A stretch of 64,000 nt of DNA from Thermoanaerobaculia bacterium (lineage in GTDB: Bacteria > Acidobacteriota > Thermoanaerobaculia > Gp7-AA8): assembly GCA_035629395.1 (NCBI GenBank), contig DASPHZ010000030.1, positions 25,440-89,439 on the forward strand, read 5' to 3'. Shown here one piece after another: positions 3,384-64,000 of the stretch. The position numbers and the translations under genes were made by a program. Each line of letters begins with the position of its first letter. Positions within the stretch are counted from its first letter, which is position 1. The notes beneath the pieces are model-generated. The model did no database searches, was not told the origin of the DNA, and saw nothing but the letters and a program-made list of their open reading frames with translations.

Positions 3384-4946
3384 CTGCTCTTCCTGACGAA
3401 CGGAACGATCTGGACCGGCGACGGTTTCGCGCGCAGCGTGACCGTCGAAGGAAACCGGATATCCGCCGTCGACTGCGAAGCGCCCCACGGCGCAACCACC
3501 ATCGATCTGCGCGGCCGCCTCGCCGTCCCCGGCTTCATCGACAACCACGTCCACTTCATCGCCGGCTGCCTGCAGCTCTCCCGCGTCGATCTGCGCGCGG
3601 CGACGTCGCCGGACGATCTCGCGCAGCGCATCGCGAAACACGCCGCGTCGCTGCAGCGCGATCCATGGATCCTCGGCGGGGAATGGGACGAACAGCAGTG
3701 GACGCCCGTCGCACTGCCCACGCGCGCGCACGTCGACGCGATCGAGAACCCGGTCTTCGTCACGCGCATGGACATGCACATGGCGCTCGCGAACTCGCGC
3801 GCGCTGCAGCTCGCGGGCATCGACCGCAACACGCCCGATCCTCCGGGCGGCGCGATCGTGCGCGACGCGAACGGCGAGCCGACGGGCGTCCTCAAAGACA
3901 CCGCCATGAGCATCCTGCTCGCGGTCGTGCCGCCGCCGAGCGTCGAGGATCGCATCGCCGCCGCACGCGCGGGACTCGCGCTCGCGGCGAGCGTCGGCGT
4001 CACGTCGTTCTGCGACATGGGCATGCGTCCCGACGCGTTCGAGGACTTTCGTGCGTACCAGCGCCTCGATCGCGAAGGCGCGCTCACCGCGCGGGTCGCG
4101 CTCTACACGCCGATCAACCTGTACGAGCGCGTGCGCGACAGCGGCGTCGAGAAACGCTTCGGCAGCGAGCGTCTACGCATCGGCGGGCTCAAAGGCTTTT
4201 CCGACGGCTCCCTCGGCTCGTCGACCGCCGCCTTCTTCGAGCCGTACGAAGACGACTGCTCGCACTGCGGTCTGGTCATGGGCGAGATGGTCGACGGCTC
4301 GATGAAAGAACGCATCCTCGACGCGAACGCGCACGAAATGCAGCTCGCCATCCACGCCATCGGCGATCGCGCGAACGCGGACGTGCTCTCGATCTTCGAG
4401 TCGATCCCGGATCATCGGGAGCGCCGCTTCCGCGTCGAGCACGCGCAGCATCTCAATCCCGAGCTCGTGCAGCGCTTCGCGAAAGGCCGCTTCGTCGCGT
4501 CGATGCAGCCGCATCACGCCATCGACGACGGACGCTGGGCCGAGAAGAAGATCGGACCCGAGCGCGCAAAGTACACGTACGCGATCCGCTCGCTGCTCGA
4601 TGCCGGCGCGATCGTGACGTTCGGCTCAGACTGGACCGTCGCGCCGCTCAATCCCTTGCACACGATCTACGCGGCCGTCACGCGACGCACGCTCGACGGC
4701 AAGCACCCCGATGGCTGGATCCCCGAGCAGCGCATCACCGTGGAAGAAGCGCTGCGCTGCCACACCGTCAACAACGCCTGGGCCACGTTCGCGGAAAACG
4801 ACCACGGTCGCATCGCACCGGGCCTGCTGGCGGACATCGCCGTCCTGTCCGAAGACCTCTTCACCATCGCGCCGGAAACGATCCGGGATGTGCGGGTGGA
4901 TCTGACGATCTTCGATGGGCGAGTGGTGTACGAGGGGAGCTGTTGA
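3384..4946 (+). CDS. Amidohydrolase-family metal-dependent hydrolase (Amidohydro_3-like); start codon uncertain (CTG 3384 or GTG 3438)
   Basis: LTNGTIWTGDG...VPGFIDNHVHF...HAIGDRA...FGSDW motifs of the amidohydrolase superfamily. In the same frame as bfr, separated only by its TAA; no ATG before 3438. Confidence 0.75.
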   Translation: MLFLTNGTIWTGDGFARSVTVEGNRISAVDCEAPHGATTIDLRGRLAVPGFIDNHVHFIAGCLQLSRVDLRAATSPDDLAQRIAKHAASLQRDPWILGGEWDEQQWTPVALPTRAHVDAIENPVFVTRMDMHMALANSRALQLAGIDRNTPDPPGGAIVRDANGEPTGVLKDTAMSILLAVVPPPSVEDRIAAARAGLALAASVGVTSFCDMGMRPDAFEDFRAYQRLDREGALTARVALYTPINLYERVRDSGVEKRFGSERLRIGGLKGFSDGSLGSSTAAFFEPYEDDCSHCGLVMGEMVDGSMKERILDANAHEMQLAIHAIGDRANADVLSIFESIPDHRERRFRVEHAQHLNPELVQRFAKGRFVASMQPHHAIDDGRWAEKKIGPERAKYTYAIRSLLDAGAIVTFGSDWTVAPLNPLHTIYAAVTRRTLDGKHPDGWIPEQRITVEEALRCHTVNNAWATFAENDHGRIAPGLLADIAVLSEDLFTIAPETIRDVRVDLTIFDGRVVYEGSC

Positions 4947-5082
4947 GGGAGCTGTTGAGCTGTTGAGCCGTTGAGCTGTTGAGGCGGCATCTCGCAAGCT
5001 CAATAGCTCAATAGCTCAATAGCTCAATGGCTCAATAGCTCAATAGCTCAACGGCTCCCTCAACAGCTCCCTCAACAGCTCC
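4937..5082. repeat. Hairpin repeat element, (CTGTTGAG)n left arm / (CTCAATAG)n right arm, spanning exactly between the stop codons of two convergent genes
   Basis: ggagctgttgagggagctgttgagctgttgagccgttgagctgttgag-gcggcatctcgcaagc-tcaatagctcaatagctcaatagctcaatggctcaatagctcaatagctcaacggctccctcaacagctccctcaacagctcc. The stop TGA of the amidohydrolase lies inside the first unit. Confidence 0.85.
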
Positions 5083-5645
5083 TACCCTCCGGCAATCACG
5101 TCCAGCTCGTCCACGATCTCGTTGAGCGTGTGGTAACGCAGCTCGTCCGGGTTCGCGATCAATTCGTCGAGCGACGGCGTCTCGAATCCTGCGGCGGCGA
5201 GCTGACGCACGAGCGGGATGGCCTGCTCGCGCAACTCTTCCGGCGGATGCGGCAGCGGCCCGGGCTCCGTGCCTTCGGCGCGGAACTGCGCGCGTTCCAT
5301 CGCCCGTGCGCGCGCTTTCAGCTTCGTCTGCAGATCGCGGATCGTGCCGATGATCTCGTTCGGCAGCGCGGTCGCGTTGCGCAACGCGGCCGCGTCGTTC
5401 TGCAGCAGCGCGACGGCCGTGAAGACGGAGTCCGGCGCGCCCGCATCGTCGATCGCGGCGACGAGATCGTTCAGCGCGAACTCGATGTCGTTCACGCGCG
5501 CGGCATTCACGCCGTTCGTCTTCGCGGCGCTGACCGCATTCGCCAGCACGTCCGCGCTGATGCGGATCGCCAGCAGCGAGGGATCGTCGCCGAGCGCGGC
5601 GCGCAACTGAAACAGCGCCGCCTCCATCATCAGCAGCTCACTCAT
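5082..5645 (-). CDS. Hypothetical all-alpha protein, translationally coupled (ATGA overlap) downstream of SPFH gene
   Basis: Consistent GC3 bias; no recognisable motif. Confidence 0.55.
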
Positions 5646-8934: not shown

Positions 8935-9000
8935 GGTTGTCGGTTGTCCGTCGTCGGTTGTCTGTGATGCAGCGGCCGGCACAGACATCAGACGGCGGAC
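8935..9000. repeat. Imperfect hairpin repeat with (GGTTGTC)n-type left arm between permease start and FHA gene stop
   Basis: ggttgtcggttgtccgtcgtcggttgtctgtgatgcagcggccggcacagacatcagacggcggacgacatc. Confidence 0.6.
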
Positions 9001-9004
9001 GACA

Positions 9005-9613
9005 TCAGTGATCGTCCGTAACGATCAGCATCAACGTGGTCGCGCCCACCTGAAACTCCGCCTTGTCACTCAGCTCGACCGGGCCGTCGATCTTCGAGCC
9101 GCTGACGAGCGTGCCGTTCGTCGAGCCGAGATCGTGGAGGTTGTAAGTCGTATCGCGGATCTCGAGCGCCGCATGCTGCCGCGAAGCCTCGGTGTCGTTG
9201 AGCGTCAGGTCGGCGTTCGAGCGGCCGATCGTCACACGCGGCTTCTCGATGCGAAAGACGCTCCCCGCGTCGGGACCGTCGAGGATGGCCAGTGAGAGGC
9301 GCTTGCCGGGCGGCAGATGCAGCGAGGTCTCCGGCTTCGGCAACTGCGACTGCTCGGTCGTATCCGGCGGCGTCGTCGGCAACGCGGAGGTGCGCGTCTG
9401 CTCGCGCGAGGTGTACGTGGAATCGCGGGCGTCGACCGCGACCGGCTCACGCGCCGCGAAGGCGGGATTGTGGATCTCGAAGATCTGCTGGCAGCGCGCG
9501 CACTTGATCTTCTTCGACGGCTTCCGCTCGAAGCGCTCCTCGTCGTATTGATACTTCGAATGGCATTGAGGGCATTCGATGATCACGTCGGCGGGACGAT
9601 AACATGATTTCAT
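9005..9613 (-). CDS. FHA-domain protein with N-terminal zinc ribbon
   Basis: CPQCHSKYQY...KCARCQQIF zinc ribbon; C-terminal FHA (TIGRSNADLTLNDTEASRQHAALEIRDTTYNLHDLGSTNGTLV). Start at MKSCY (ATG 9613..9611). Confidence 0.75.
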   Translation of the reverse strand: MKSCYRPADVIIECPQCHSKYQYDEERFERKPSKKIKCARCQQIFEIHNPAFAAREPVAVDARDSTYTSREQTRTSALPTTPPDTTEQSQLPKPETSLHLPPGKRLSLAILDGPDAGSVFRIEKPRVTIGRSNADLTLNDTEASRQHAALEIRDTTYNLHDLGSTNGTLVSGSKIDGPVELSDKAEFQVGATTLMLIVTDDH

Positions 9614-11546: not shown

Positions 11547-11625
11547 ATGTTGCCGGTTGTCGGTTGTCGGTTGTCGGTGCCGTCTCGCAAGGCAGCACAG
11601 ACAACTGACCGACAACCGACAACGG
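11547..11625. repeat. Hairpin repeat element, (GGTTGTC)n left arm / (CGACAAC)n right arm, between convergent genes
   Basis: ccggttgtcggttgtcggttgtcggtg-ccgtctcgcaaggcagcacagacaactga-ccgacaaccgacaacgg. Confidence 0.8.
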
Positions 11626-11629
11626 ACGT

Positions 11630-30925: not shown

Positions 30926-30953
30926 GCGGCGCGCGCCGCAGGGCAGAGGGTAG

Positions 30954-32339
<1,386 letters not shown>

Positions 32340-35216: not shown

Positions 35217-38200
35217 ATGAACGTCTCCGATCCCGCAGATCCGCTGTTGCCGGCTCCTCGCCGAGGACGGCGGAGGACTGCTCGGGAGCGGCAGCGCAAA
35301 GGCCCGATGTTCGGCTGCATCAAGGGCCTCATCTGGGTCTTCGGCGTCGGCTTTCTCGTGCTCCTCATCGGCATCGGCACGGGCTGGTTTCTCCTCGGCT
35401 CGACGAACTTCGCCGATTACGTCCGCAAGCGCATCGAGACCACACTCGAAACCCGTCTCGGACGTGAAGTCACGATCGGAAAAGTGATCTTCGTCCGCAC
35501 GCGCCCGCAGAAGATCATCCTCCAGAATCTGCGCATCGCGAACGCGCCCGGCGGTGCGGCGCCGCAGTTCGCACTCGTGCGCGAAGTCGAGCTCACCGGC
35601 GGCATCCAGTCGTTCTGGGGACGCGCGGTGCAGATCGATCGCATCGACATCCGCGATCCGCAGGTGTGGTTCGAGCTCCTTCCGAACGGTGAGCACAACT
35701 TCCCGAAGTGGAAGACGGGGCCGAAGCGCCGCTTCGAGATCGTGCGCGTCGACTTCCGTCATCTCTTCATCCGCGGCGGCGCGTTCAGCTTCAACGATCG
35801 CAAACACGAGATCGTCGCGGTCGCGCAGAAGATCGCTTCAGACATCACCGTCACTCGCGCCGAGGGGTTGTACGCGGGCCTCATGACCAGCCCGAACGTG
35901 CGCGTGAGCATCCAGGACTACCAGCCGTTCGACGTCACGATGCGCGGCGGCTTCCGCTACACGCCGGGCGTGCTCGCGCTGCAATCGATCGCGCTCGAAG
36001 GCCGCGGCATCCAGGCCTTCCTCACCGGCAAGCTCGATCCGCTCACCGAAGCCGTGTACGACCTCGGACTGCGGGCGCGCCTCGACCTCCCGCGCGTGAA
36101 AGAGATCTTCGCGGTCGAGCCCGTGCTCGAAGGGACGATCGCGCTCGACACGCGCCTCAAAGGAAAGGCCGGCGACTTTACGCTCGCGGGGGGCTGGACG
36201 GCGCCGAAGCTCGTCGCCGACGCGTACGAGCTCGCGAACGCGCGCGGCACGTTGAGCGTTACCGCCGACAACCTCACCATGGACGTGCAGCGCGCCGAAT
36301 ACGGCGGCGGCACGATCGGCGCGAACTACGTCCTCGCAAAGTACGCCGAGCCGTATCCGATGCGCGTCGATCTGCGCTACTACGGCATCTCCATCGAACA
36401 GCTCTTCAGCGACTGGGGCGTCGAAGGGACGGGCCTGCGCGCCGCGGCGACGGGCAATCTCGAGTACCGCTGGAACAAAGAGAAGATCCTCGAAGGCGCC
36501 GGCGAAGGCACCGCGCGGCTGGCGAAGAACGCGGTGGCGTTCTCGAATGCGCGCTACCCGATCGGCGTCACCGGCTCCACGGACTTTGCGCTGAACAACG
36601 GCGTCGTCACGTTCCGCCGCGCGGAGCTCGACACCGACGCGTCGCACATCAGCCTCACCGGCAACCTGAAGATCGAGGACGTCGTCACGGACCTGCGCAT
36701 GGCGATCCGCAGCACCGACTTTGCGGAGCTCGATCGCCTCGCGTTCAACTTCGCGCAATCCGCGGGCAAGAACGATTTCGAGCTGCTCGGATTCGGCGGC
36801 GCGGGCACGATCACCGGCACCGTCAAAGGTCCGATCGAAACGCCGCAGGTCGTCGCTCAGGTGAACGGCTCGCAGGTGCGCTACAGCGAAGTGCTCCTCG
36901 GCGACGCCGACATCGCGCTGCGCTACGACGGCAATCGTTCCACGCTCACGTTCGATCGCGCGATTTTCGTCGACGCCGGCGGACGCCTCACGCTCACCGG
37001 CACGATCGAGTTCCCCGATCGCGGACCCGGTCCCGTGTTCGACATCGCCGTCGAAGCGAACGGCTATCCCGCGCAGCGCGCGATCGACGCGGTCGGACTC
37101 GATCTGAAGATCGGACCGGGCCTGGCGACGGGACGGATGGTCGTCGCCGGCACACCGGAGCAGGGACGCGCGACGTTCGCGGGACTCACCGTCCGCCGCA
37201 ACGACGCCACGCTCGCACTCAACGGCACCATCAACTGGCTGCCGGGCGAAGGCAACGTCGCGTTCGACCTCGACATCGCCGCGACGAACTTCCCCGTGGC
37301 CGACATCGCCGCGTTCCTCGACTTTGCGGACATCCCCATCACGGGCGATCTCACCGGCACGCTGAAGATCGCGGGCCGCAAGGAATCGCTCGAAGGCTCC
37401 GGACGCGTGACCATCGCGCGCGGCGCGGTGATGGGTGAGCCGGTCGATCTCGCGTCGGCGGACATCGTCTTCAGCGAGGGACGCATGCGTGCGACGAATG
37501 TGCTCGTGCGCGCGGCGGCGGGCGAGGTCCGCGGCGAAGCGGAGATCGATCTCGCGAACGAGCGTTTCAGCTACACGATCTCCTCGGCCGCGCTCGATCT
37601 GTCGCGCCTGCAGTTGCTGCAGGGCATGCAGGACCTCTTCGGCGGACGACTCGTGCTCCGCTCGACCGGCGCCGGCACGTTCGAACAGCCGGAGCTCGTG
37701 ATCGAAGCGACGCTGGAAGAAGGGACGCTGCGCGGACTGACGCTGCCCGCGGGCTCCGCGCCGCCGTCGCTCTATCTCGCCATCCGCAACGGTCGCCTGA
37801 TCATCCGCGGCTCCGTCGCGGACATCGTCTCCATCGAAGGCGAAGGGCTCGTCGGCGAGAACCTCGCGGTCGACGGCAACGTGCGCATCGTCATCGCCGA
37901 CATCGCGGGCGCCATGGCCATGGCGCCCGCAACCGCTTCGTTCCCCGCATCCGGCAACATGACGATCGACGTGCGCCTCGGCGGCAGGCTCACGCCGATC
38001 GAAGCGCTCGTCGCCGAAGTCACCGCACCCGTCTTCAACCTTCGCTTTGCCGATCACGAGCTCACGCCCGCGGAGCCGCTGCGCATCTCGCTGCGCAACG
38101 GACGGCTGTCATTCGACTCTTTCGTCGTGCGCCGTCCCGACTCCGAGTTCGCCGTCACCGGCTTCGCGGAGATCACCGGCAACAAACAACTCGACGTCGA

Positions 38201-41200
38201 CGTGCGCGGACGCGCGAACGCCGCGCTCGTGCAGCTCTTCGCGCCCGATATCCGCGCCGAGGGATACGCGAATCTCTCGATCGGCGTGGATGGGACTTTG
38301 AGCGCGCCGCGCGTCCTCGGATCCGCGGAGCTCGTCGACGCGCAGGTGAAGTTCGCGGGATTCCCGCAACTGATCGACGAGATCAACGGCACGCTGCAAT
38401 TCCGCGGCGACCGCATCGAGATCGAATCGGTGCGGGCAACCCTCGGCGGCGGCACCGTCGTCGCGGGCGGCGCGATCGCGCTCAACGGCACGACCCCGCG
38501 CAGCGCGCGCATCACCCTGCAGGGCAACGACGTCGCGTTGCGTTACTACGAAGGGCTCACGCTCGAAGGCAACTTCACGCTGCTGCTCACGGGCGACATG
38601 GATCGCGGCCTGCTGCAGGGCGACATCGACGTCACCCGCGCGCGCTACTTCCGCGACTTCGACATCCAGCAGGCGCTGCTCAACGTCCTCCTCGCGCGCA
38701 ACCGCGTGACGCCGGTGAGCGCGGCCACGTGGCAGGAGCGCGTCGGCCTGCGCCTGCATCTCTCCGCGCCGGGCACGCTCGCGGTCGAGAACAACATCGC
38801 AGACGTCACCGGCAGCGCGGAGCTCGACGTGAACGGCACGATCGCGGCGCCGGTGATCATCGGCGAGGTCACGCTCGACGAAGGCGGCACCGTCACGATC
38901 CAGAACGTCGACTACCGCGTCGCGCGCGGCACCATCGCGTTCCAGAATCCGTTCCGCATCGATCCCTTCTTCGACGTCACCATCGAAGGCACCGTCTCCG
39001 GCTTCGGGTCGTCGGAGACCGAAGGCGGCCCATACGAAGTGAGCGTGAATCTCACCGGTACGCTCGATCGCCTCACGCCGACGGTCACGAGCGATCCTCC
39101 CGCCAGCGACATCACGCTCTTCTCCATCCTCGGCTTCGGCGCACTCGGAAGCCGCCAGCCCGGACAGCAGGCGAGCGGCGTCGGGTTGCTCGGCCAGTCG
39201 CTGCTCTACCAGAGCCTCAGCTCCTTCATCGGCTCGACGGTCTTCCCGTTCGTCGACTCGTTCGCGTACGACCCGGGCACGCTCGACGCGAGCACCGGCG
39301 CGGGCCCGCGCGTAACGTTTGAAAAGCGGCTCTCGAATCGCGTGCGCTTCCTCGTCGTCTACAACCTCGAAGACCAGCGCAGCCGTCAGGTCATCGAGTG
39401 GCTCGTCAATCCGACGTGGACGCTGCAGCTCACGCGCGACGAGGAAGACGAGTACCGCCTCGACGCGCGCTTCCGCCGCCGCTACGAAGCGCACTGGCAG
39501 TGGGGCGACGACGATCGCGCCACGAACATCGCCACGTCGTCGAGTGTAGGGACAGGCGCGGTGCCCGTCGCCACACCGGCTCCGGCATTGACGCTCGTCA
39601 ACACGCGCGCGGCCGACGACCGCCCCATCGCGCGCATCGATTTCCGCGCCGACGCCGGATTCGACACGAACGCGGTCGCGCAGGAAGTGACGCTCGCGCC
39701 GGGCGAAGTGGTGACCATCCGCGAGCTGCAGTCGTCGATCAAGAATCTCTTCGCCACCGGCAACTTCCGCGACGTACGCGTCGACTCCACGCCCGGACCG
39801 GACGGCGTCGTCCTCACGTTCTCGCTCTTCCTGCATTACCGCATCGGCGCCATCGAAGTCGCGGGCGTCGAACGCGGCGACCGCACGCGCGCGCAGCGCG
39901 AGCTCACCGTGCGCGCGGGCGAAGTGCTCTCCCTCGACGACGTCGACGACAGTGCGTCCGCCATCGAAGAGACGCTGCAACAGCACGGCTATCTCGAGGC
40001 GGTCGTCGATCCCGAGACGAACTTCGACCGCGCGCGCAACGTGGCCGACGTCACGTTCCACGTCACGCCGGGACCGCAGGCCACGATCGCGAGCGTGATC
40101 CTCGAAGGCAACACCGCGCCGTTCACGACGGACGACCTCCTCGAGCGCATGAGCCGCCGCGCGGGACGCACGTTCAGCCTCCCCGACGCGCGCGAGGATG
40201 CGGACCGCATCCAGAACTTCCTCGTGCGCCGCAATCACCGCCGCGCCGACGTCGACTTCCTCGGCCACACCTACGACGAAGCGACGCACGGCGTCACGTT
40301 GCGCTATCGCGTGCAGGTGGGACCCACCGTGCAGGTCGCGGTGAGCGGCGTACCGCGAAGCATGGTCCGCCGCTGGCTGCCGTTCGCGCGCAACCAGGAG
40401 TACAGCGAAGACGTCGTCGAGCGCGCCGCGGACCGCATCACCGAGGGGCTGCAGGAGCGCGGCTACTTCCTCGCGACCGTCGACACCGAGAGCTCGCTCG
40501 AGAACAACGTCTGGACGACGACGTTCCACGTCGATCCGGGTGTGCAGTACCGCCTGCAGGAAGTCCGCTTCAGCGGCAACGCGAAGATCGAGGACGGCGA
40601 GCTCGAAGGCGTCGTGGCCACCAATCCGCGCGGCGGCTTCCGCGGCTTCGTCGCGCGCCTCTTCCGCCGCCCGACCGGCGTCACGCGCACGCAGCTCTCC
40701 GACGACCGCGACTCCGTCGAATCGTTCTATCGCCTGCAGGGCTTCTCGCAGGCGACCGTCGGCGAGCCGATCGCGCAGACGCGCGCCGACCAGACGCTCG
40801 TCGTCGACTTCCCGATCACGGAAGGGCCGCAAACGCTGCTCGCCTCGGTCCGTCTCGAAGGGGTGCAACCGGATCACGTCGACGAGATGCCGAACCTGCA
40901 ACTGCGTCCCGGCGAGCCGCTCAATCCGCAGCTCCTCAACGAAGACGTCATCACGCTGCAGACGTTCTACGCGAACCGCGGCCATGTCGAAGTGCAGGTC
41001 TCGCCGCGCGTCGACACGACGGAGGATCAGACGACGGCGACGCTCGTTTACGTGATCGCGGAAGGGCCGCAGGTGAACGTCGACGAGATCACCGTGCGCG
41101 GCAACACGTACACCGATCGCGACGTCGTGCTGCGCCGGTCGGGCCTGGAGGCGGGACGTCCGTTCAGCTACACGTCGATGCTCGAAGCGCAGCGCGAGCT

Positions 41201-42428
41201 CTATCGCCTCGGCATCTTCCAGCGCGTGGAGGTGCAGCCGACGCAGACCGACACGACGGTCGGCGATCGCGACGTCGTCATCCAGGTCGAGGAAGGCCGC
41301 AACCTCACCGTCACCGGTTCGGTCGGTATCCGCGCCGAGCGCGGCACCAACGTCGGCAGCGGCCTCGAAGTGCACGAGCGGATCGCGGCCGCGGTCGCGC
41401 ATCGCAACCTCTTCGGCACCGGCCGCTACCTCGGCCTCGAAGGCGTCTACAGCCGCGAAGAGCAGGAAGCGTTCATCACGTACCGCGAACCGTTCGTCGG
41501 CCGCTGGAACGTGCCCGTGCAGTTGCAGATCTTCCAGTCCGACGACACGACGCGCGGCGCGACCCAGATCCTGCAGAAGGGACTGTCGGTCGAGGCCTCA
41601 CGCGTGGCGCGCCTGCAGACGCGCTGGTCGCTGCGGTACGAGTACAAGATCTCGACGTGCGAAGGCGGCGAGCTGTGCGACGACATCAAGGACGGCGTGA
41701 TCGTCGAGAACCTCGACCGCTCGCTGCTCGACATCCAGATCTCCTCGATCGCACCGACGTTCTTCTGGGACCGCCGCGACGACATCATCGATCCGCACCG
41801 CGGCTTCTTCGCCAGCGCCTCGGTCGAGTACGCGTTCCCGCTGTTCTCCGCCTCGGCCGGATTCACGAAGGAGTTTGTGCAGGGCGCGTATTACATCCCG
41901 CTCACCGAGCGCACGGTGATCGCGCTGTCGGGACGGGCCGGTTTCATCCAGCGTTACGCGAAGCGCTTCGACGAAGACCTCGGACGCGACGTGCTGCGCG
42001 ACACGCCGCTGTCGGAGCGCTTCACCGCCGGCGGCGAGACGACGCATCGCGCGTTCGCGCTGGATCGCCTCGGCGATCCGTGCATGGAGAGGAAGGACGC
42101 GCCGGTCGACGAGACGTGCTCGCGCACGCTGCGCTACGACCCCGACACGGGACGCATCCAGCCGCTCGGCGGCAACGCGCTGCTGCTGTTCAACGCGGAG
42201 TACCGCTTCCCGATCTTCGGCACGCTCGGCGGCGCGGCGTTCGTCGACATCGGCAACGTCTTCCCCGACAGCACGGTGCGCTTCAACGAGCTCCGTTACG
42301 GAGGCGGCCTCGGACTGCGCTACCTCTCGCCAGTAGGTCCGCTGCGGTTCGACGTGGCGATGCCGTACCGGCGCAGATGGTACGAGGACCGCGTGCAGTT
42401 CTTCTTCTCCCTCGGATACGCGTTCTGA
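35217..42428 (+). CDS. Giant fusion protein: TamB/AsmA-like (N-terminal TM anchor through DUF490-like C-terminal region, about aa 1-1420) fused to POTRA repeats plus Omp85/BamA-TamA-type beta-barrel (about aa 1460-2403)
   Basis: Single uninterrupted ORF with coherent GC3 throughout. N-terminal TM (LIWVFGVGFLVLLIGIG) and long beta-rich AsmA/TamB-like region ending in a DUF490-like segment (...VNLTGTLDRLTPTVTSDPPASDITLFSILGFG...VTFEKRLSNRVRFLVVYNLED...WTLQLTRDEEDEYRLDARFRRRYE). Linker, POTRA-like modules (IARIDFRADAGFDTNAVAQEVTLAPGEVVTIRELQSSIKNLFATGNFRDVRVD...), and Omp85 barrel ending ...GGNALLLFNAEYRFPIFGTLGGAAFVDIGNVF...LRYLSPVGPLRFDVAMPY...FFFSLGYAF. Confidence 0.75.
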   Translation: MNVSDPADPLLPAPRRGRRRTARERQRKGPMFGCIKGLIWVFGVGFLVLLIGIGTGWFLLGSTNFADYVRKRIETTLETRLGREVTIGKVIFVRTRPQKIILQNLRIANAPGGAAPQFALVREVELTGGIQSFWGRAVQIDRIDIRDPQVWFELLPNGEHNFPKWKTGPKRRFEIVRVDFRHLFIRGGAFSFNDRKHEIVAVAQKIASDITVTRAEGLYAGLMTSPNVRVSIQDYQPFDVTMRGGFRYTPGVLALQSIALEGRGIQAFLTGKLDPLTEAVYDLGLRARLDLPRVKEIFAVEPVLEGTIALDTRLKGKAGDFTLAGGWTAPKLVADAYELANARGTLSVTADNLTMDVQRAEYGGGTIGANYVLAKYAEPYPMRVDLRYYGISIEQLFSDWGVEGTGLRAAATGNLEYRWNKEKILEGAGEGTARLAKNAVAFSNARYPIGVTGSTDFALNNGVVTFRRAELDTDASHISLTGNLKIEDVVTDLRMAIRSTDFAELDRLAFNFAQSAGKNDFELLGFGGAGTITGTVKGPIETPQVVAQVNGSQVRYSEVLLGDADIALRYDGNRSTLTFDRAIFVDAGGRLTLTGTIEFPDRGPGPVFDIAVEANGYPAQRAIDAVGLDLKIGPGLATGRMVVAGTPEQGRATFAGLTVRRNDATLALNGTINWLPGEGNVAFDLDIAATNFPVADIAAFLDFADIPITGDLTGTLKIAGRKESLEGSGRVTIARGAVMGEPVDLASADIVFSEGRMRATNVLVRAAAGEVRGEAEIDLANERFSYTISSAALDLSRLQLLQGMQDLFGGRLVLRSTGAGTFEQPELVIEATLEEGTLRGLTLPAGSAPPSLYLAIRNGRLIIRGSVADIVSIEGEGLVGENLAVDGNVRIVIADIAGAMAMAPATASFPASGNMTIDVRLGGRLTPIEALVAEVTAPVFNLRFADHELTPAEPLRISLRNGRLSFDSFVVRRPDSEFAVTGFAEITGNKQLDVDVRGRANAALVQLFAPDIRAEGYANLSIGVDGTLSAPRVLGSAELVDAQVKFAGFPQLIDEINGTLQFRGDRIEIESVRATLGGGTVVAGGAIALNGTTPRSARITLQGNDVALRYYEGLTLEGNFTLLLTGDMDRGLLQGDIDVTRARYFRDFDIQQALLNVLLARNRVTPVSAATWQERVGLRLHLSAPGTLAVENNIADVTGSAELDVNGTIAAPVIIGEVTLDEGGTVTIQNVDYRVARGTIAFQNPFRIDPFFDVTIEGTVSGFGSSETEGGPYEVSVNLTGTLDRLTPTVTSDPPASDITLFSILGFGALGSRQPGQQASGVGLLGQSLLYQSLSSFIGSTVFPFVDSFAYDPGTLDASTGAGPRVTFEKRLSNRVRFLVVYNLEDQRSRQVIEWLVNPTWTLQLTRDEEDEYRLDARFRRRYEAHWQWGDDDRATNIATSSSVGTGAVPVATPAPALTLVNTRAADDRPIARIDFRADAGFDTNAVAQEVTLAPGEVVTIRELQSSIKNLFATGNFRDVRVDSTPGPDGVVLTFSLFLHYRIGAIEVAGVERGDRTRAQRELTVRAGEVLSLDDVDDSASAIEETLQQHGYLEAVVDPETNFDRARNVADVTFHVTPGPQATIASVILEGNTAPFTTDDLLERMSRRAGRTFSLPDAREDADRIQNFLVRRNHRRADVDFLGHTYDEATHGVTLRYRVQVGPTVQVAVSGVPRSMVRRWLPFARNQEYSEDVVERAADRITEGLQERGYFLATVDTESSLENNVWTTTFHVDPGVQYRLQEVRFSGNAKIEDGELEGVVATNPRGGFRGFVARLFRRPTGVTRTQLSDDRDSVESFYRLQGFSQATVGEPIAQTRADQTLVVDFPITEGPQTLLASVRLEGVQPDHVDEMPNLQLRPGEPLNPQLLNEDVITLQTFYANRGHVEVQVSPRVDTTEDQTTATLVYVIAEGPQVNVDEITVRGNTYTDRDVVLRRSGLEAGRPFSYTSMLEAQRELYRLGIFQRVEVQPTQTDTTVGDRDVVIQVEEGRNLTVTGSVGIRAERGTNVGSGLEVHERIAAAVAHRNLFGTGRYLGLEGVYSREEQEAFITYREPFVGRWNVPVQLQIFQSDDTTRGATQILQKGLSVEASRVARLQTRWSLRYEYKISTCEGGELCDDIKDGVIVENLDRSLLDIQISSIAPTFFWDRRDDIIDPHRGFFASASVEYAFPLFSASAGFTKEFVQGAYYIPLTERTVIALSGRAGFIQRYAKRFDEDLGRDVLRDTPLSERFTAGGETTHRAFALDRLGDPCMERKDAPVDETCSRTLRYDPDTGRIQPLGGNALLLFNAEYRFPIFGTLGGAAFVDIGNVFPDSTVRFNELRYGGGLGLRYLSPVGPLRFDVAMPYRRRWYEDRVQFFFSLGYAF

Positions 42429-42448
42429 GGCGCCTGCGGTGCGGAGCT

Positions 42449-42681
42449 GGTTACTGGTGCGATGTCGGTTGCTGGCGCGTTGCTGGTTGTTGGTTGCTTG
42501 TCAGTCCGCGACGTAGCGCCCAGCCGATGCCTGATACACGCTCCAGCGCCTGCGGCGCGTTGTCCGTCGCCCGCAATGCCAAGCGTGTCGCCCAGGCGCT
42601 GCCTCACAAGCAACCAGGAACCAGCAACCAGCAACTGAAGCGGCCCGCGCGCGCAACCAGCAACGGCCGCGGAACCGCGGC
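42449..42681. repeat. Long hairpin repeat element, (GGTTGCT)n-type left arm / (AGCAACC)n right arm with about 130-nt loop, between convergent genes
   Basis: ggttactggtgcgatgtcggttgctggcgcgttgctggttgttggttgcttg ... caagcaaccaggaaccagcaaccagcaac ... gcaaccagcaacggccgcggaaccgcggcc. Confidence 0.75.
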
Positions 42682-48929: not shown

Positions 48930-49056
48930 GGAGCTGTTGAGCTGTTGAGCTGTTGAGCCGCTGAGCTGTTGAGCCGTTGAGCTGTTGAGTCGCTGAGCGG
49001 AGGGGCCGGGGGAGCTCAATGGCTCAATAGCTCAACGGCTCAATTAGCGAACAGCT
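48930..49056. repeat. Second copy of (CTGTTGAG)n / (CTCAATAG)n hairpin repeat element, same orientation as copy at 4937-5082
   Basis: ggagctgttgagctgttgagctgttgagccgctgagctgttgagccgttgagctgttgagtcgctgagcgg-aggggccgggggag-ctcaatggctcaatagctcaacggctcaattagcgaacagctccc. Overlaps the 3' end/stop of the GyrI-like gene. Confidence 0.85.
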
Positions 49057-49523
49057 CCCACCACCGGCAGGTACACATCCGTCACCATCTCCTCCTCGCG
49101 CACGTTCGGGCCGACGTTCACGTAGTGGAAGAAGATGGGAAAGTCGGCGAGGCGCTCGCCGCTTTGCGGGAGCCAGACTTCGGCGAGATAGCGCGCGGTC
49201 GTGTTGTTTTCGCGGGAGCCGAGGTGGCGGGCTTTGGCGCAGCGCAGGGCGGGGATGCGTTTGTTGATCACGCCTTGCGGATTCGGCGGGACGTCGGCGT
49301 CGACGGCGATCGCGAAATCGACGCGATGCTCCTCGGGCGCGGTTTTCGCGGGATCGGTGTAGTGGATGCCGTACGTCTTGTAGCGATCGGGCGGATAGCC
49401 GTTCTGGATGCGCCACTGGATCAGGCGGCGCGCCGTCTCGTGCTCGAGCTCCGGCGCGCCGCGATGTTCCACGGCGGCGATCTTCGTTTCGGGAAACGCG
49501 ACGATTTCGACGGCGATCGTCAT
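49044..49523 (-). CDS. GyrI-like small-molecule-binding domain protein
   Basis: About 159 aa; start ATG overlaps upstream gene stop (TGATG). Confidence 0.55.
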   Translation of the reverse strand: MTIAVEIVAFPETKIAAVEHRGAPELEHETARRLIQWRIQNGYPPDRYKTYGIHYTDPAKTAPEEHRVDFAIAVDADVPPNPQGVINKRIPALRCAKARHLGSRENNTTARYLAEVWLPQSGERLADFPIFFHYVNVGPNVREEEMVTDVYLPVVGAVR

Positions 49524-51954: not shown

Positions 51955-52066
51955 TGCCAGATGGTTGCTGGTGGTTGGTTGCTGGTTGGTAGTTACTGGT
52001 TGCTCGGGATTTGCCCTGAGCCGAAAGCTCACGAGCAACCAGGAACCAGCAACGAGTAACCAGCAA
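51955..52066. repeat. Hairpin repeat element, (GGTTGCT)n left arm / (AGCAACC)n right arm
   Basis: ggttgccagatggttgctggtggttggttgctggttggtagttactggttgctcg-ggatttgccctgagccgaaagctcacg-agcaaccaggaaccagcaacgagtaaccagcaac. Confidence 0.8.
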
Positions 52067-52783
52067 CTACTTCCGCCGCTTCACCAACTGCTTCACCTCA
52101 TCGTTCCCGATCGCGCTCTGCGCGGAAATGATGACCGCCGCGGTGCCGTCGCGGAAGGCGGGGATGGTGCAGCGCACGGTCGCCGTTCCGTCCGCCGCGG
52201 TCTTGCCGCGGAAGATGACGCGCGGCGGTTCCACGGTCGAGATCACTTTCACCTCGATCGCGGCCGCGGGGATCGGTGCCTGGGAGAGGCTCTTGCGGGC
52301 GGCGACGCGCATTTCGATCGGGGCGCCGGCGAAGAAGTCGACCACGTTGAGGAGCGCGAGCTCGAGATGCTCGCTCTCGGCTTCCGAGGCGAGGTAGTCG
52401 ATGATGACCTGATCGAGGGTCTTCTCCTCGTCGATCGCCACCGGTGCCGCCGCGGCTTCCTCGAACACCACGCCCGAGTCCTGCGTGAGCGTCGGCATCG
52501 ACGGGCGCGGCGAGGCTTTCGTCGTATCGGCGGGCTGATCGAAGCGGCCGCGTTTGATGGCCGCGATCATGGTCCGGTGCTGCTGCTCCATGAGGCCGCC
52601 GATCCATTTGTCGTCGACGCCCGTCTTGAGCTGCTCCGCGTACGAAGTCTTCTTCGACGCGAGGATCTCGCCACCCACGTACACGAGCGACTCGATGTAG
52701 GGATTCCCTACACCTTTGTCCTCGGTCTGCACGTGGTAGACCTTCTCGTTGTGCTTGATGTCTGTATTGAAGCCGGTGATCAC
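52067..52783 (-). CDS. Hypothetical protein
   Basis: Good GC3 bias; MITGFNTDIKHNEKVYHVQTEDKGVGNPYIESLVYVGGEIL N-terminus, no motif recognised. Confidence 0.55.
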   Translation of the reverse strand: MITGFNTDIKHNEKVYHVQTEDKGVGNPYIESLVYVGGEILASKKTSYAEQLKTGVDDKWIGGLMEQQHRTMIAAIKRGRFDQPADTTKASPRPSMPTLTQDSGVVFEEAAAAPVAIDEEKTLDQVIIDYLASEAESEHLELALLNVVDFFAGAPIEMRVAARKSLSQAPIPAAAIEVKVISTVEPPRVIFRGKTAADGTATVRCTIPAFRDGTAAVIISAQSAIGNDEVKQLVKRRK

Positions 52784-60443: not shown

Positions 60444-62297
60444 ATGCTTTGTCAGACCTGCAGCGCGTACAACGATGACGAGCGCGAGTTCTGCTTTCGC
60501 TGCCAGAACAAGCTCCTCGTCCTCTCCGGCGTCAACTCGTTCGAGGAAGACGACCTCGAGGAATACGAGGAAGAAGAAGATCTCTCGTTAGACGAGCATC
60601 TGCTCGAGCGCGTCTCCGCGATCGAAGAGATCGTGAAGCGCTCCGCCGAGACCATTCGCTCCCTCGTCGACGCCGTGCAGAAGCACGAGCGCGCGATCTT
60701 CATCAATCAAACCGGTCTGCTCTCGGTCAAAGAGCTGCTCGAGAAGAAGAACGTTCTCACCTCGGACGAAGTCGTCGAGCTGTGGGAATCGAAGATGGGC
60801 GAGCAGATGCTCGCGCTCGAAAAGAAGCAGCGCTTCACCGAGCGCAAGGACCGCATGGTCTCGCTCTTCCGCGGCGACAAACGCGAGCGCTTCCTGCTGC
60901 TCGTCGCCGACTCGGAGGCGGCGTTCGACGGCTTCGATCCCGATCGCGGGATGAAGCATCTCGAAGAAGCGTTCCGCCTCGATCGCGACAATTACGAGCT
61001 CTCGTTCTTCCTCGGCGAGATGTTCTTCAACGACGGCAATCTCGACCGGGCGAAGTCGTATCTCGAGCGCACGCTCGAAGTGCAGCCCGATCATTTCGAC
61101 GCCGCCGTGTTCTACGGCGTGCTGCTGCACGAGCGTCAGGATCTCAAGGGCGCGGAGCGCTGGCTCCGCCGCGCCATCCAGATCTCTCAGGAATCGTTCC
61201 TCCCTTACTTCTCCCTCGGCGCGATTTACGCGCGCAAAGGGAAGCTGCTGCGCGCGCAGAAGTTCCTCGAGAAAGCGATCCAGCTCGAGGCCATCCCGCA
61301 GGCCTACTTCCTCCTCGGAACGATCTTCTACGAGAAGGGGCAGCTCGAACGCGCCATCCGCTCGTTCCAGGCCGCGCTGAAGCTCGATCCCGATTACGAA
61401 GAGGCGATCTATCACCTCGGCCTCTGCTACCTCGACCGCAACTGGAACCGCAAAGCGATCGATTGCTTCCAGGAGGCGCTGGAGCTCAATCCGAACAAGA
61501 TGGAGTACCAGCAGGCGGTCAAGATCTACGAGGGGATCTCCGGCCACATGCCGGTCGAAGGTCCGGCCGCGCAGGTCGTCAGTGAAGCCGACACGCTGGC
61601 CTCTGAAGGCAAGTACTCCGAGGCGCTGGATCACTACCGCCGGGCGGCGGAAGAGGAGCCGGACAACGTCAACATCCTCCTCCCCTACGCGCTGCTCTGC
61701 TCGCACCTCGACATGAACGGCGAAGCGATCGCGGTCGCTCGCCGCATCCTCAAGCATCGTCCGGCGGAGGTCGTCGCCGCGGCCGCGTACACGACGCTCG
61801 TCGAAGCGTTGCGCGCCGAGGGGAACTTCAAGGAAGCGAACCGCGCGCTCGAAGAGATGCTGCGCGACTACACCTCGAATTACGCGAAATCGATCGCGTA
61901 CTTCGAGAAGGCGTACACGCTCGCCGACATGGAAGAGAACCTCGACGAGGCCCTCGAATCCGCGCAACTCGCACTGCGCTACTCACCGAAAGAGCTCAAG
62001 CAGTTCCCGCTCGCGGCATTAGGCTGGGTGTACTTCAAACGCCGCGATTTCAAATCAGCCGTCGACTTTCTGACCAAGTCCGCCGACCTCGGCCCCACCG
62101 CCACAAACCTCATGCACCTCGGCATGGCCCTCCTGGAAAGCGGCGACAAAGACCGCGCCCGCCAGGTCTTCCGCCGCGCGAAGACGTTCAAGACGAAGGG
62201 CGCGGGCCTCGAGGAAAAGATCCTCGAACAGGTGCGCACAGCGACCAAGCTGATCGACCGGTTGCACGCGCGCCGGCGGAAGGTGGCGAAGGGGTGA
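60444..62297 (+). CDS. TPR-repeat protein with N-terminal zinc ribbon
   Basis: CQTCSAYN...CFRCQ; multiple TPR units through the C-terminal two thirds. Confidence 0.7.
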   Translation: MLCQTCSAYNDDEREFCFRCQNKLLVLSGVNSFEEDDLEEYEEEEDLSLDEHLLERVSAIEEIVKRSAETIRSLVDAVQKHERAIFINQTGLLSVKELLEKKNVLTSDEVVELWESKMGEQMLALEKKQRFTERKDRMVSLFRGDKRERFLLLVADSEAAFDGFDPDRGMKHLEEAFRLDRDNYELSFFLGEMFFNDGNLDRAKSYLERTLEVQPDHFDAAVFYGVLLHERQDLKGAERWLRRAIQISQESFLPYFSLGAIYARKGKLLRAQKFLEKAIQLEAIPQAYFLLGTIFYEKGQLERAIRSFQAALKLDPDYEEAIYHLGLCYLDRNWNRKAIDCFQEALELNPNKMEYQQAVKIYEGISGHMPVEGPAAQVVSEADTLASEGKYSEALDHYRRAAEEEPDNVNILLPYALLCSHLDMNGEAIAVARRILKHRPAEVVAAAAYTTLVEALRAEGNFKEANRALEEMLRDYTSNYAKSIAYFEKAYTLADMEENLDEALESAQLALRYSPKELKQFPLAALGWVYFKRRDFKSAVDFLTKSADLGPTATNLMHLGMALLESGDKDRARQVFRRAKTFKTKGAGLEEKILEQVRTATKLIDRLHARRRKVAKG

Positions 62298-62760
62298 CCA
62301 GCTGGTGGTGAGCTGTTGAGCGATCAAGCTGTTGAGCTGTTGCGGCCATCCGCCGCTCGAGGGAGCGTTAGAGCTGTAGAGCGATAAAGCTATAGAGGGG
62401 CCACTACCGCTTTACAGCTTTACGACTCTATCACTCTACAGCTTCCTCCCCCGGCCTCAACTCCTGCGGCCATCCGCCGCTCAGCTCAACAGCTGTGGGG
62501 GAGCGGTAGAGCTGTAGAGCGATAAGCTATAGAGGGGCTGCTACCCCCTTTACAGCTTTACAGCTCTATCACTCTACAGCTCCCTCCCCGCCCTCACTCC
62601 TGCGACCATCCGCCGCTCAGCTCAATAGCTTAACGGCTCAACAGCTCAATAGCTCTGTGGGGGGAGCTATCGCGGGGCTACCCCTTTACAGCTTTACAGC
62701 TCTACCACTTTCCAGCTCCCATCACTCTACAGCTCCGCCCCTCACTCCCCCGTCTGCCGC
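62298..62760. repeat. Composite repeat array: about 125-135-bp unit in 3 tandem copies (third degenerate), flanked/interspersed with CTGTTGAG/CTCAATAG-family arms
   Basis: ccatccgccgctc recurs at 62346, 62470, 62606; each unit contains tagagctgtagagcgata(a)agctatagagggg...ctttacagctttac(g/a)(a/g)ctctatcactctacagct. Also gagctgttgagcgatcaagctgttgagctgttg at 62304 and cagctcaatagcttaacggctcaacagctcaatagctc at 62618. Confidence 0.85.
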
Positions 62761-62988
62761 TCCCGCTCCTCGCGCTGCGCGCGTTCGTGCACGCGGGGGG
62801 ACACTTCGTCGCCCGCTTCCTCGCGCACGGCGGGTATCTGCGCTGCCGGATCCTCTCCCGGTTCGGGTTGGGCGGGGCGGTTCTCGTTGTGGATGATGCG
62901 CTTCTCGGTCATGGCACCGATGAGGTGCGACGAGAATGCCACTCCGTGATCATCCGTACACGGTGAAGAGTGGTGCGCGCGTGAGCGA

Positions 62989-64000
62989 TCACGCGCGCGT
63001 CAGCTTCGCGAACTTGGCCACGAACTTTTTCGAGCCGAAGCGTTCGAAGTACACCGTCAGCTTCGCGTCCGGACCGCTGCCTTCCATCGTCAGGATCGTC
63101 CCGACGCCGAACTGCTCGTGCTTCACGCGCTGGCCGCGCTTCAGATCGGCCGCCCCCGACGCTGCTTCCGGCGCCTGCGATTTCGCGGCGCGGATGGCAT
63201 TGGGATCGAACTGCACCGGCGCGTTCTGGAAGAACGACAGCACTCCGTTGACCGAGTTGTTCTTCGGCGGCGGCGGTGCAGCAGGACGCGAGGGCGGCGG
63301 CATCGACGGCCGCCGTTGCGGCAGCGGCTGCTCGCGCCAGTTGTTCTGCGGCGCCGAGTACGCCCGCGCCAGGCGCAGCGGCTCTTTCGCTTCCTCCGGG
63401 ATCTCCTCGAGGAACGGCGACGCGCTCTGCTCGCGGAACTTCCCATGCACGCGGCGCTCGTACGCGTGCGTGCAGAACAGCAGCTCCCGCGCCCGCGTCA
63501 TGCCGACGTAGCAGAGACGCCGCTCCTCCTCGAGATCCTCGCTGTGCTCGGCCGAATTCGCGTGCGGAAGAATCCCCTCTTCCATCCCGGCCAGAAAGAC
63601 CACCTTGTACTCGAGCCCCTTCGCCGAGTGCAGCGTCATGAGCGTGACACCCTTCTGCGACTCGTAGCGATCGAGATCCGAGATCAGCGTGAGTGAATCG
63701 AGATAGTCGGCGAGCGTCGACTGCGGATTCTGCTCCGTATAGTCACGCGCGGAGTTGAGCAGTTCTTCGAGATTTTCCAGGCGCGACTCGTCCTGCAGAT
63801 CGCGCGACTCCTGCAGCATGCGCCGGTAGCCGGTGCGCAGGAGCACGTAGTCGACGAACTCCGGGATCGGATTCGTCGAGGCACGCTGCAGGTCGTGGAT
63901 GATCTCGCGGAACTCCTTCACCGCCTTCGCGGCGCGCGCGGGCAGGAACGACAGATCGCCTTCGATGATCGTCCACAGCGACACGTTCTGCGCCGCGGCC
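62989..64000 (-). CDS. UvrD/PcrA/Rep-family DNA helicase (C-terminal part; gene continues beyond window end)
   Basis: Helicase motifs V-VI (VTLMTLHSAKGLEYKVVFLAGMEEGILPH...YVGMTRARELL) and C-terminal Tudor-like tail (GQRVKHEQFGVGTI). Confidence 0.85.
   Translation of the reverse strand, partial: AAAQNVSLWTIIEGDLSFLPARAAKAVKEFREIIHDLQRASTNPIPEFVDYVLLRTGYRRMLQESRDLQDESRLENLEELLNSARDYTEQNPQSTLADYLDSLTLISDLDRYESQKGVTLMTLHSAKGLEYKVVFLAGMEEGILPHANSAEHSEDLEEERRLCYVGMTRARELLFCTHAYERRVHGKFREQSASPFLEEIPEEAKEPLRLARAYSAPQNNWREQPLPQRRPSMPPPSRPAAPPPPKNNSVNGVLSFFQNAPVQFDPNAIRAAKSQAPEAASGAADLKRGQRVKHEQFGVGTILTMEGSGPDAKLTVYFERFGSKKFVAKFAKLTRA

Follow-up and report, generated by a model that had tools for sequence, protein, structure and literature searches.

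The short tandemly repeated repetitive (STRR) sequences of cyanobacteria are 7-bp tandem arrays that fold into intergenic hairpins, for example between hupS and hupL and upstream of hoxW, and roles in transcript stability or termination have been proposed for them (PMC2670836). The repetitive extragenic palindromes (REPs) and bacterial interspersed mosaic elements (BIMEs) of Proteobacteria are palindromes tagged with GTAG or CGTC (PMC3733652), whilst long simple sequence repeats (SSRs) with 5–11-nt units are enriched in large GC-rich genomes (Mrazek et al. 2007, as cited in PMC4679880 and PMC4692102). Part of one report on Porphyromonas gingivalis describes a MITE (miniature inverted-repeat transposable element) that contains a minisatellite (PMC4596501). 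Here we describe an array with features of several of these systems, located at 62298–62741 in a 64,000-nucleotide stretch (the window) of a Thermoanaerobaculia (Acidobacteriota) metagenome-assembled genome (MAG) from soil. The array consists of an outer hairpin built of tandem octamers, within which lie two intact inner hairpins of ~95 nt each built of other octamers. It belongs to a family of 7–8-nt-repeat hairpins that litters the intergenic DNA of this Thermoanaerobaculia lineage, and is probably best regarded as a compound, nested cluster of SSR hairpins, similar to BIMEs and STRR sequences, that has grown by slippage and segmental duplication.

In common with STRR sequences, the hairpins of this family are intergenic, comprise short tandem units (7 bp in STRR, 7–8 bp here) and occur in many copies per genome. 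Unlike STRR sequences, they are found in Thermoanaerobaculia rather than in filamentous cyanobacteria, have other unit sequences and longer stems (30–60 bp), and combine different units in concentric shells with a higher-order tandem duplication of 124–136 bp; host and units rule out STRR membership, so that STRR is an analogue only. The resemblance to REPs and BIMEs lies in dispersed extragenic imperfect palindromes that form mosaic clusters between genes, often at 3' ends, and vary between strains. A size of 20–40 bp, the lack of tandem oligomers, a terminal GTAG/CGTC tag and a link to RAYT (REP-associated tyrosine transposase) proteins are REP features that are undemonstrated here: neither the size nor the tag agrees, GTAG being internal to every inner octamer and the outer type having GTTG. 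Long SSRs of the Mrazek type (such as the TAACTGA and GGGNATC heptamers) likewise have 7–8-nt units, are over-represented in the non-coding DNA of free-living bacteria whose genomes are large and GC-rich, change copy number by slippage and share a unit among unrelated phyla, as does (GAGCTGTT)n, but they are direct repeats only, whereas here an inverted array follows each array a few dozen nucleotides downstream. The P. gingivalis MITE is similar in being a small non-coding inverted-repeat element with internal tandem repeats and copy-number variation, but no separate terminal inverted repeats, target-site duplication or parent insertion sequence (IS) were found at the loci described here. The array works like STRR sequences, REPs/BIMEs and long SSRs, yet is a member of neither the STRR nor the REP class. 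No account of this octamer, or of hairpins of this type in Acidobacteria, came up when the literature was searched, which is not proof of novelty.

Anatomy of the array

The array fills the 444-bp gap (62298–62741) between the stops of two convergent genes, one encoding a TPR-repeat protein (+ strand) and the other a 56-aa open reading frame (ORF; − strand), and begins 1 nt after the end of the TPR gene stop codon. A preliminary description of this DNA had noted an intergenic array of ~470 bp lying downstream of a UvrD-like helicase gene; the array is indeed there, but the gap is shorter and the 56-aa ORF intervenes between array and helicase gene. The same description had proposed three tandem copies of a unit of about 130 bp, marked by an anchor sequence. 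The 13-mer anchor CCATCCGCCGCTC is found exactly at all three of the positions it gave (62346, 62470 and 62606), with a further copy carrying two mismatches at 62750. Cutting at the anchor yields units of 124 bp (62359–62482), 136 bp (62483–62618) and 144 bp (62619–62762), whose identity over aligned positions is 82% (1 vs 2), 74% (2 vs 3) and 64% (1 vs 3), and Tandem Repeats Finder (TRF) reports a period of 136 with 2.6 copies and 80% matches at 62369–62720.

Two features had escaped that first reading: family copies elsewhere in the window, and an 8-nt sub-period that TRF detects through nearly the whole region, with period-8 arrays at 62309–62342, 62369–62397, 62551–62582, 62618–62655 and 62684–62717. 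In having a 5–11-nt unit repeated head to tail at least three times in non-coding DNA, these resemble the long arrays of SSR and STRR type. The outer hairpin arms are tandem GAGCTGTT / AGCTCAAY octamers. The inner hairpins have GAGCTGTA / CTYTACAG arms (left-arm octamers GAGCTGTA, GAGCGATA and AAGCTATA; right-arm octamers CTTTACAG, CTCTATCA and CTCTACAG) and a GAGGGG...CCCCTTT tip. The parts of the array are as follows, with minimum free energies (MFE) given for the two strands.

62304–62342: left arm of the outer hairpin, GAGCTGTT GAGCGATC AAGCTGTT GAGCTGTT G (TRF period 8; orthologous to the left arm in relative L105)
62341–62358: anchor copy 0, TGCGGCCATCCGCCGCTC (exact repeats; aligns with the start of the loop in L105)
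62359–62452: inner hairpin B1, tip GAGGGG..CCGCTTT (inverted repeats; MFE −46.5 kcal/mol on +, −46.1 on −)
62453–62482: spacer and anchor copy 1, GGCCTCAACTCCTGCGGCCATCCGCCGCTC (direct repeat, unit alignment; resembles the 3' end of the 56-aa ORF)
62483–62494: fragment of outer right arm, 1.5 octamers, AGCTCAACAGCT (one octamer more in strain L002)
62495–62590: inner hairpin B2, the best-preserved copy (inverted repeats; MFE −54.4 kcal/mol on +, −57.1 on −)
62591–62618: spacer and anchor copy 2, CCCTCACTCCTGCGACCATCCGCCGCTC (repeats, unit alignment)
62619–62655: right arm of the outer hairpin, AGCTCAAT AGCTTAAC GGCTCAAC AGCTCAAT AGCTC (TRF period 8, 4.8 copies; inverted repeats)
62656–62741: inner hairpin B3, degenerate, outside the outer right arm and ending at the 56-aa ORF stop (MFE −26.9 kcal/mol on +, −37.9 on −)

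Much of what had been read from the letters alone is borne out by this map. The inverted segments within the units were recovered, those of B2 (62509–62524 and 62567–62582) being 16 nt long with 94% complementarity. The outer arms are split across the array as described, and are 87% complementary over 31 nt (62309–62339 and 62618–62648). The third copy is degenerate: the left arm of B3 is short by ~23 nt (about three octamers), whilst its right arm has a 17-nt internal duplication (TRF period 17). Anchor copy 0 folds as a 5-bp mini-hairpin (GCGGC/GCCGC), and the outer hairpin presumably had it as its first loop.

All three inner hairpins have CCCTCACTCC...CC(A/G)TC(C/T)GCCGCTC after them, in register. 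Behind B3 this sequence is where the 56-aa ORF really ends (its 3' end), whilst diverged copies of it follow B1 and B2 as pseudo gene ends, CCCTCACTCC..CCATCCGCCGCTC matching CCCTCACTCCCCCGTCTGCCGCTC of the ORF end. Spacers and anchors were probably copied from the last ~25 nt of the 56-aa ORF (CTCACTCCCCCGTCTGCCGCTC).

The − strand RNA, whose folding the preliminary description had proposed as a check, is predicted to fold strongly, about ten standard deviations better than dinucleotide shuffles, and the same is true of the + strand. For the whole region the MFE is −255 kcal/mol (−) vs −227.6 kcal/mol (+), and the outer arms alone account for about −50 kcal/mol. The claim that the single mismatch of the inner inverted segments would be a G.U wobble only in − strand RNA holds for that mismatch (C.A on +, G.U on −), but does not identify a favoured strand: in the outer arms, CUGUU/AAUAG gives G.U on +, and since the two have opposite polarity, neither strand is favoured.

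Other known kinds of sequence were considered for the region and set aside. A coding reading is ruled out by units of 124 and 136 bp, which are not multiples of three, by the lack of any ORF with gene-like G+C content at third codon positions (GC3) and by stops in all frames. CRISPR arrays have 24–48-nt repeats with unique spacers, but here the whole 124–136-bp unit is repeated and there are no unique spacers. In the attC sites of integrons, an imperfect hairpin has R'' (RYYYAAC) as its 5' end and R' (GTTRRRY) as its 3' end, with cassettes and the IntI integrase nearby. GTTGAGC does fit GTTRRRY and GCTCAAC fits RYYYAAC, but in the reverse order, with the GTTRRRY arm first, and no integrase was seen in a scan of element-adjacent proteins.

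A family of repeat hairpins in Thermoanaerobaculia

The preliminary description had treated the unit as suspect should it not be found elsewhere. Both hairpin types do occur elsewhere, in the window and beyond it. In the window the family comprises two octamer hairpins in addition to the array, with TRF period-8 arrays at 4949–5051 and 48931–48998 (up to 8.5 copies), and about five hairpins with heptamer units (GGTTGTC/GACAACC, GGTTGCT/AGCAACC and GAGGGCC/GGCCCTC).

4935–5082: octamer hairpin, (GAGCTGTT)x5, loop, (AGCTCAAT)x7 (MFE −99.9 kcal/mol)
48931–49057: octamer hairpin, (GAGCYGTT)x8, loop, (RGCTCAAY)x4, separating two − strand genes, a GyrI-like one and fur (MFE −86.6 kcal/mol)
11549–11627: heptamer analogue, (GGTTGTC)x4, loop, (GACAACC)x3, between convergent genes
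51962–52067: heptamer analogue, (TGGTTGC)x6, loop, (AGCAACC)x5
8935–9010, 30935–31010 and 42446–42640: further heptamer analogues

The family hairpins span 75–150 nt and, like REPs and BIMEs, are extragenic imperfect palindromes that are both dispersed and clustered. The hairpin at 4935–5082 lies between the stops of a convergent amidohydrolase gene (+) and a 187-aa ORF (−). The opening octamer of this hairpin (GCTGTTGAG) provides the amidohydrolase stop (4944–4946), and the stop of the 187-aa ORF (5082–5084) lies at the last bases of the other arm; with both stops at hairpin arms, this gap consists wholly of repeat.

A scan of metagenome data with the inner right arm gave eight loci. The metagenome Ga0196958 contains the window's strain, L116 (identical to L118) being the orthologous locus with a helicase that is 100% identical; the match L114 lies in coding DNA and is a chance one. 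Inner-type hairpins are present at six other intergenic loci of this metagenome (L109–L113 and L115), and their tip, GGGAGC...GCTCCC base and octamers are those of the window hairpins. L111 has the same compound layout, (GAGCTGTT)x4, inner hairpin, GCTCAACAGCT, inner hairpin, GCTCAACAGCTCC, and in L109 the inner hairpin is duplicated in tandem.

Scanning species genomes for GAGCTGTTGAGCTGTTG gave at least 101 loci, at least 17 of them in a single Thermoanaerobaculia MAG, SMAG_U3429. Among the matches listed, the outer-type hairpins of SMAG_U3429 conserve a core, GAGCGAGAAGTGT..ACACTTCTCGCTC, at nine loci, and compound clusters are common in this MAG (L055, L085 and L056), either as outer shells of other octamers or as strings of two or three. 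A BLAST comparison of the window and of unit B2 with the 101 listed genome loci gave no long match and no inner-type unit; lacking shared inner units, the SMAG_U3429 octamer family is related to the window elements but forms a distinct set. Again among the matches listed, an inverted partner arm accompanies the GAGCTGTT arrays at 12 of 18 Thermoanaerobaculia loci vs none of 83 others.

One property is common to nearly the whole family. In 31 of 33 members, both strands considered, the G-rich arm is 5' and the C-rich arm 3', across at least eight different 7–8-nt units (binomial p 1.3e-7, which is optimistic as the elements are not fully independent). The observation concerns seven window hairpins (4935, 8935, 11549, 30935, 42446, 48931 and 51962) and loci L004–L115. 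This order is not forced by symmetry, as a C-first arrangement is a different sequence. The 5' arms hold 69 stop and 74 start triplets, and their complements 22 and 2, respectively. The arm order could reflect selection at gene boundaries, favouring stops just after genes and start-free leaders just before them, or could come from a directional mechanism of formation. Such a fixed polarity would point to a directional mechanism, for instance hairpin-templated fold-back synthesis or a single-strand DNA transposase, or alternatively to strong selection at gene boundaries, the 5' arms having stop triplets in every frame and the 3' arms hardly any start triplets. It is conceivable, if rather unlikely, that a lineage-specific and as yet undescribed process in Thermoanaerobaculia builds and spreads inverted simple-repeat arrays of fixed polarity and that the window array is its product. 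The family shows microsatellite-like arrays that are systematically organised as long hairpins with a fixed arm order, and if that order reflects mechanism or boundary function it would define a repeat class beside REP/BIME and STRR, in a phylum whose gene-end signals are essentially unstudied. It is this arm order that deserves to be pursued, the array on its own being only modestly interesting.

Arrays of the outer octamer are also seen outside this lineage. At 27 listed loci of other phyla, (GAGCTGTT)n is present as 3–16 perfect tandem copies, intergenic and with no inverted partner arm, a count made without a control octamer, so that over-representation is unproven. The loci include L025, L048, L051, L072, L099, L081 and L022; among the taxa represented are Pseudomonadales, Bryobacterales, Pseudoalteromonas, Planctomycetia, Chlorobium, Chitinophagaceae and Thermodesulfobacteriota. 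The pattern recalls the cross-phylum TAACTGA repeats (PMC4679880). In MAGs of Thermodesulfobacteriota/Desulfobacteraceae (L020, L082, L102 and L011), octamer arrays have a conserved lead-in, TAGCGCCCTTCGGGCGAGCTGTT, which is a small GC hairpin; they then drift via related units (GAGCTTAT and TAGCTTAC) whilst keeping AGCT every 8 nt. In a Chitinophagaceae MAG (L096, JADKKJ010000011), CTCAACAG arrays flank a segment of ~700 nt in inverted orientation, and one 24-nt array is apparently in frame within a dTDP-glucose-dehydratase-like coding region (both read by eye). A scan of viral contigs for (GAGCTGTT)x3 gave no matches.

Origin, growth and possible role of the array

Relatives of the window were ranked by helicase identity to it. 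In L107 (87%), the repeat is absent at the orthologous site and 29 bp separate the small ORF from the TPR gene. L105 (93%) has lost the small ORF and carries a simple hairpin of four plus four octamers without inner units; in alignment, the left arm of this hairpin and the start of its loop correspond to the window's outer left arm and anchor. L106 (92%) keeps the ORF beside a different neighbour, and L108 (86%) has two extra genes. The small-ORF homologues are 56 aa long in L106 and 54 aa in L107, and their conserved RQTGE end (ERERQTGE in the window) is ancestral, being present in both relatives without the array. Repeat number also differs between strains: L002 has one AGCTCAAC more than the window together with a loop duplication, the outer right arm is an octamer shorter in L116, and the 4935 element of L120 has a left arm with additional units, a unit-number polymorphism of the kind that characterises SSRs and STRR sequences. 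With relatives lacking the array or having a simpler one, and with repeat number varying between strains, comparison at the sequence level shows the array to be recent and unstable. The outer hairpin is thus older than the inner units, L105 having the orthologous outer hairpin only, and the whole array arose within a few per cent of protein divergence. Two suggestions of the preliminary description gain support here, namely that a unit array had inserted into a pre-existing hairpin, which fits the L105 form, and that the region might be a minisatellite with presence/absence variation.

Other, unrelated hairpins occupy the orthologous convergent gaps of relatives. That of L107 has a small GC stem, GCGGAACGCGCCGC. 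In L119, a relative at 85% (JGI 3300076038), a REP-like 20-nt palindrome, GACGGCCGAGGGCGGCCGTC, is present in two direct copies at 2957–3050, and the pair fills the gap orthologous to window 4947–5081; a copy similar to GACGGCCGAGGGCGGCCGTC is seen at about 8490–8520 in L106, after its 56-aa ORF. In a relative at 72%, gene order is different at the site of the 4935 element. The common denominator of the orthologous convergent gaps seems to be some hairpin, the family differing by lineage.

How might the array have grown? Octamers were probably added by replication slippage, with unequal, microhomology-mediated duplication also at work. The 124–136-bp period would have come from tandem duplication of a segment comprising an inner hairpin and the spacer that copies the 56-aa ORF end, probably mediated by GC-rich microhomology with the old loop. 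We do not think that the whole array arrived as one ready-made insert, although single inner hairpins were perhaps seeded from dispersed copies.

A different origin would be that the inner and outer hairpins are non-autonomous mobile elements, of REP/BIME or MITE type, copied by an enzyme encoded elsewhere such as a RAYT/IS200-type single-strand transposase, and that the array arose as inner elements inserted time and again into an outer element's loop and beside it. In favour of this origin, inner hairpins at seven or more unlinked loci have their tip, base and types of octamer in common, nine of the listed SMAG_U3429 loci share a core, nesting and clustering recur, the L111 junction CCTCCCCCGCTCAACAGCTG resembles the window unit junction, and GTAG, the tag of one REP superfamily (PMC3733652), is present in every inner octamer. 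However, there is no sharp common boundary, arm lengths vary within and between copies, and no flanking direct repeats were found when looked for at 4935, 48931 and 62304, so that the terminal inverted repeats, target-site duplications and clean filled and empty sites of a MITE are lacking. The pseudo-copy of the neighbouring gene end in each unit fits local duplication instead. The loop of L105 (..GCCGCTCGGCTCGTGTCAC) is similar to the spacer of L107 (..GCCGCAGCAGCCGTGTCAC), which is ancestral, as if the arms flank old sequence rather than having arrived as a block, but this is weak evidence from one filled/empty comparison. Ten element-adjacent proteins have no transposase domain, although no search aimed at RAYT was made, and the viral-contig scan for (GAGCTGTT)x3 turned up no copies. 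We consider a mobile origin of the elements unlikely, and the same goes for assembly of the array by repeated insertion, but a mobile origin could hold for the seeding of single hairpins even with local growth of the array.

The strong predicted folding raises the question of whether the region acts as RNA. The preliminary description had offered a structured 3' untranslated region (UTR) or small RNA (sRNA) locus, which here would mean either an sRNA or a long 3' UTR belonging to the TPR gene or to the helicase/56-aa-ORF operon. The somewhat better overall folding of the − strand and a position downstream of genes on both strands are in keeping with this. An Rfam scan at permissive E-values, though, gave no family at its gathering score, the best match being 29.2 bits vs 80 for MIR533, a plant microRNA (miRNA) model; the sub-threshold matches are generic long-hairpin, miRNA-like or SymR-like noise, and all of the weak miRNA-like ones fall in B2. 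No promoter or terminator consensus was found in the region, relatives whose flanking proteins are 87–93% identical lack the array or have a radically different one, G.U polarity is mixed, the family has no sense-strand folding bias and repeat number differs between strains. A dedicated regulatory RNA is thus very improbable, and equally so the idea that its repeated hairpins bind a protein or serve as targets of RNase III.

What the cluster of SSR hairpins may do, if anything, is more modest. Essentially it would be selfish, expansion-prone DNA which the genome tolerates and which may offer a slight benefit as a bidirectional 3'-end barrier. RNA from either convergent gene might form stem-loops of very high stability (for the intact units B1 and B2, −46 to −57 kcal/mol each on either strand) that block 3' exonucleases and hinder read-through, as has been suggested for REP/BIME and STRR hairpins (PMC2670836), a possibility that we put forward only tentatively. 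At most the array would be a non-essential 3'-end barrier between convergent genes, with its exact sequence and copy number likely to be free of selection.

Several observations weigh against this account of growth and role. An intrinsic (Rho-independent) terminator is ruled out, there being no U-tract after the stem-loops: a terminator scan of 62000–63100 gave no sites on either strand and the sequence has no T-runs. When folding energy and G.U asymmetry were compared across the family, the sense strand was the more stable in only 5 of 16 co-directional contexts. The gaps occupied by the family in the window are convergent in five cases, co-directional in four and divergent in none, but SMAG_U3429 has many elements in divergent gaps, the overall figures being 9 convergent, 16 co-directional and 11 divergent (~11/38, from crude GC3-based gene calls). 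A location confined to 3' ends therefore holds for the nine window elements and fails in SMAG_U3429, and the family as a whole is not restricted to 3' ends. The tips (GAGGGG..CCCCTTT) and bases (GGGAGC..GCTCCC) common to inner hairpins at unlinked loci imply dispersal of a founder copy, beyond purely local slippage, and pure slippage leaves the G-rich-first order of the arms unexplained.

Finally, the three-unit structure is spanned by one assembly only, ERZ27257310; three of four assemblies, including all those of other strains, break inside the array, so that the number of large units rests on that one assembly. A short-read assembler might in principle have expanded or chimerised a simpler repeat, a concern that the preliminary description had also raised. 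Against this, the units share only 64–82% identity and no exact repeat within the array is longer than 24 nt, well under the assembly k of 141; the independent assembly L003 is identical through units 1 and 2; and L002 and L116, which come from other samples, cover the array in overlapping pieces with changes of strain level. An artefact can accordingly be given almost no credence.

For annotation, the structured gap should be treated as repeat DNA and not called an sRNA or riboswitch. Arrays of this type will break short-read assemblies of these common soil Acidobacteriota, and their octamer and unit numbers, which differ by strain, are possible markers for strain typing in metagenomes.

Neighbouring genes and other observations

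The genes around the array are the following.

60444–62297, + strand: gene for a TPR-repeat protein of 617 aa (Pfam TPR families, E down to 1e-43; also called in the source contig)
62742–62912, − strand: conserved 56-aa ORF, MTEKRIIHNENRP...ERERQTGE* (translation; called in the source contig, L106 and L107)
62989–63984, − strand: 3' part of a UvrD/PcrA-type helicase gene (Pfam UvrD_C and PcrA_UvrD_tudor; 763 aa in the full contig, L001)

A Pfam search with the 56-aa ORF gave no match. Between this ORF and the helicase gene, a perfect 10-bp palindrome, GCGCGCGTGA-gcga-TCACGCGCGC, is found at 62975–62998, with the helicase stop codon (62989–62991) within its right arm, and is responsible for the weak SymR-like Rfam matches. 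The 76-nt gap between the two genes holds it here, whilst in L106 and L107 the ORF adjoins or overlaps the stop codon of the helicase gene.

The E. coli Chi octamer, GCTGGTGG, is present at 62301–62308, on the array's left edge, where strain L002 reads accagcaggtgagc instead. This is probably a coincidence, as any given 8-mer should turn up about twice in the window.

Away from the array, a 2403-aa ORF (35217–42428, + strand) encodes AsmA/DUF748 and TamB domains, six POTRA repeats and an Omp85 barrel, and looks like a TamB–TamA-type fusion in one polypeptide.

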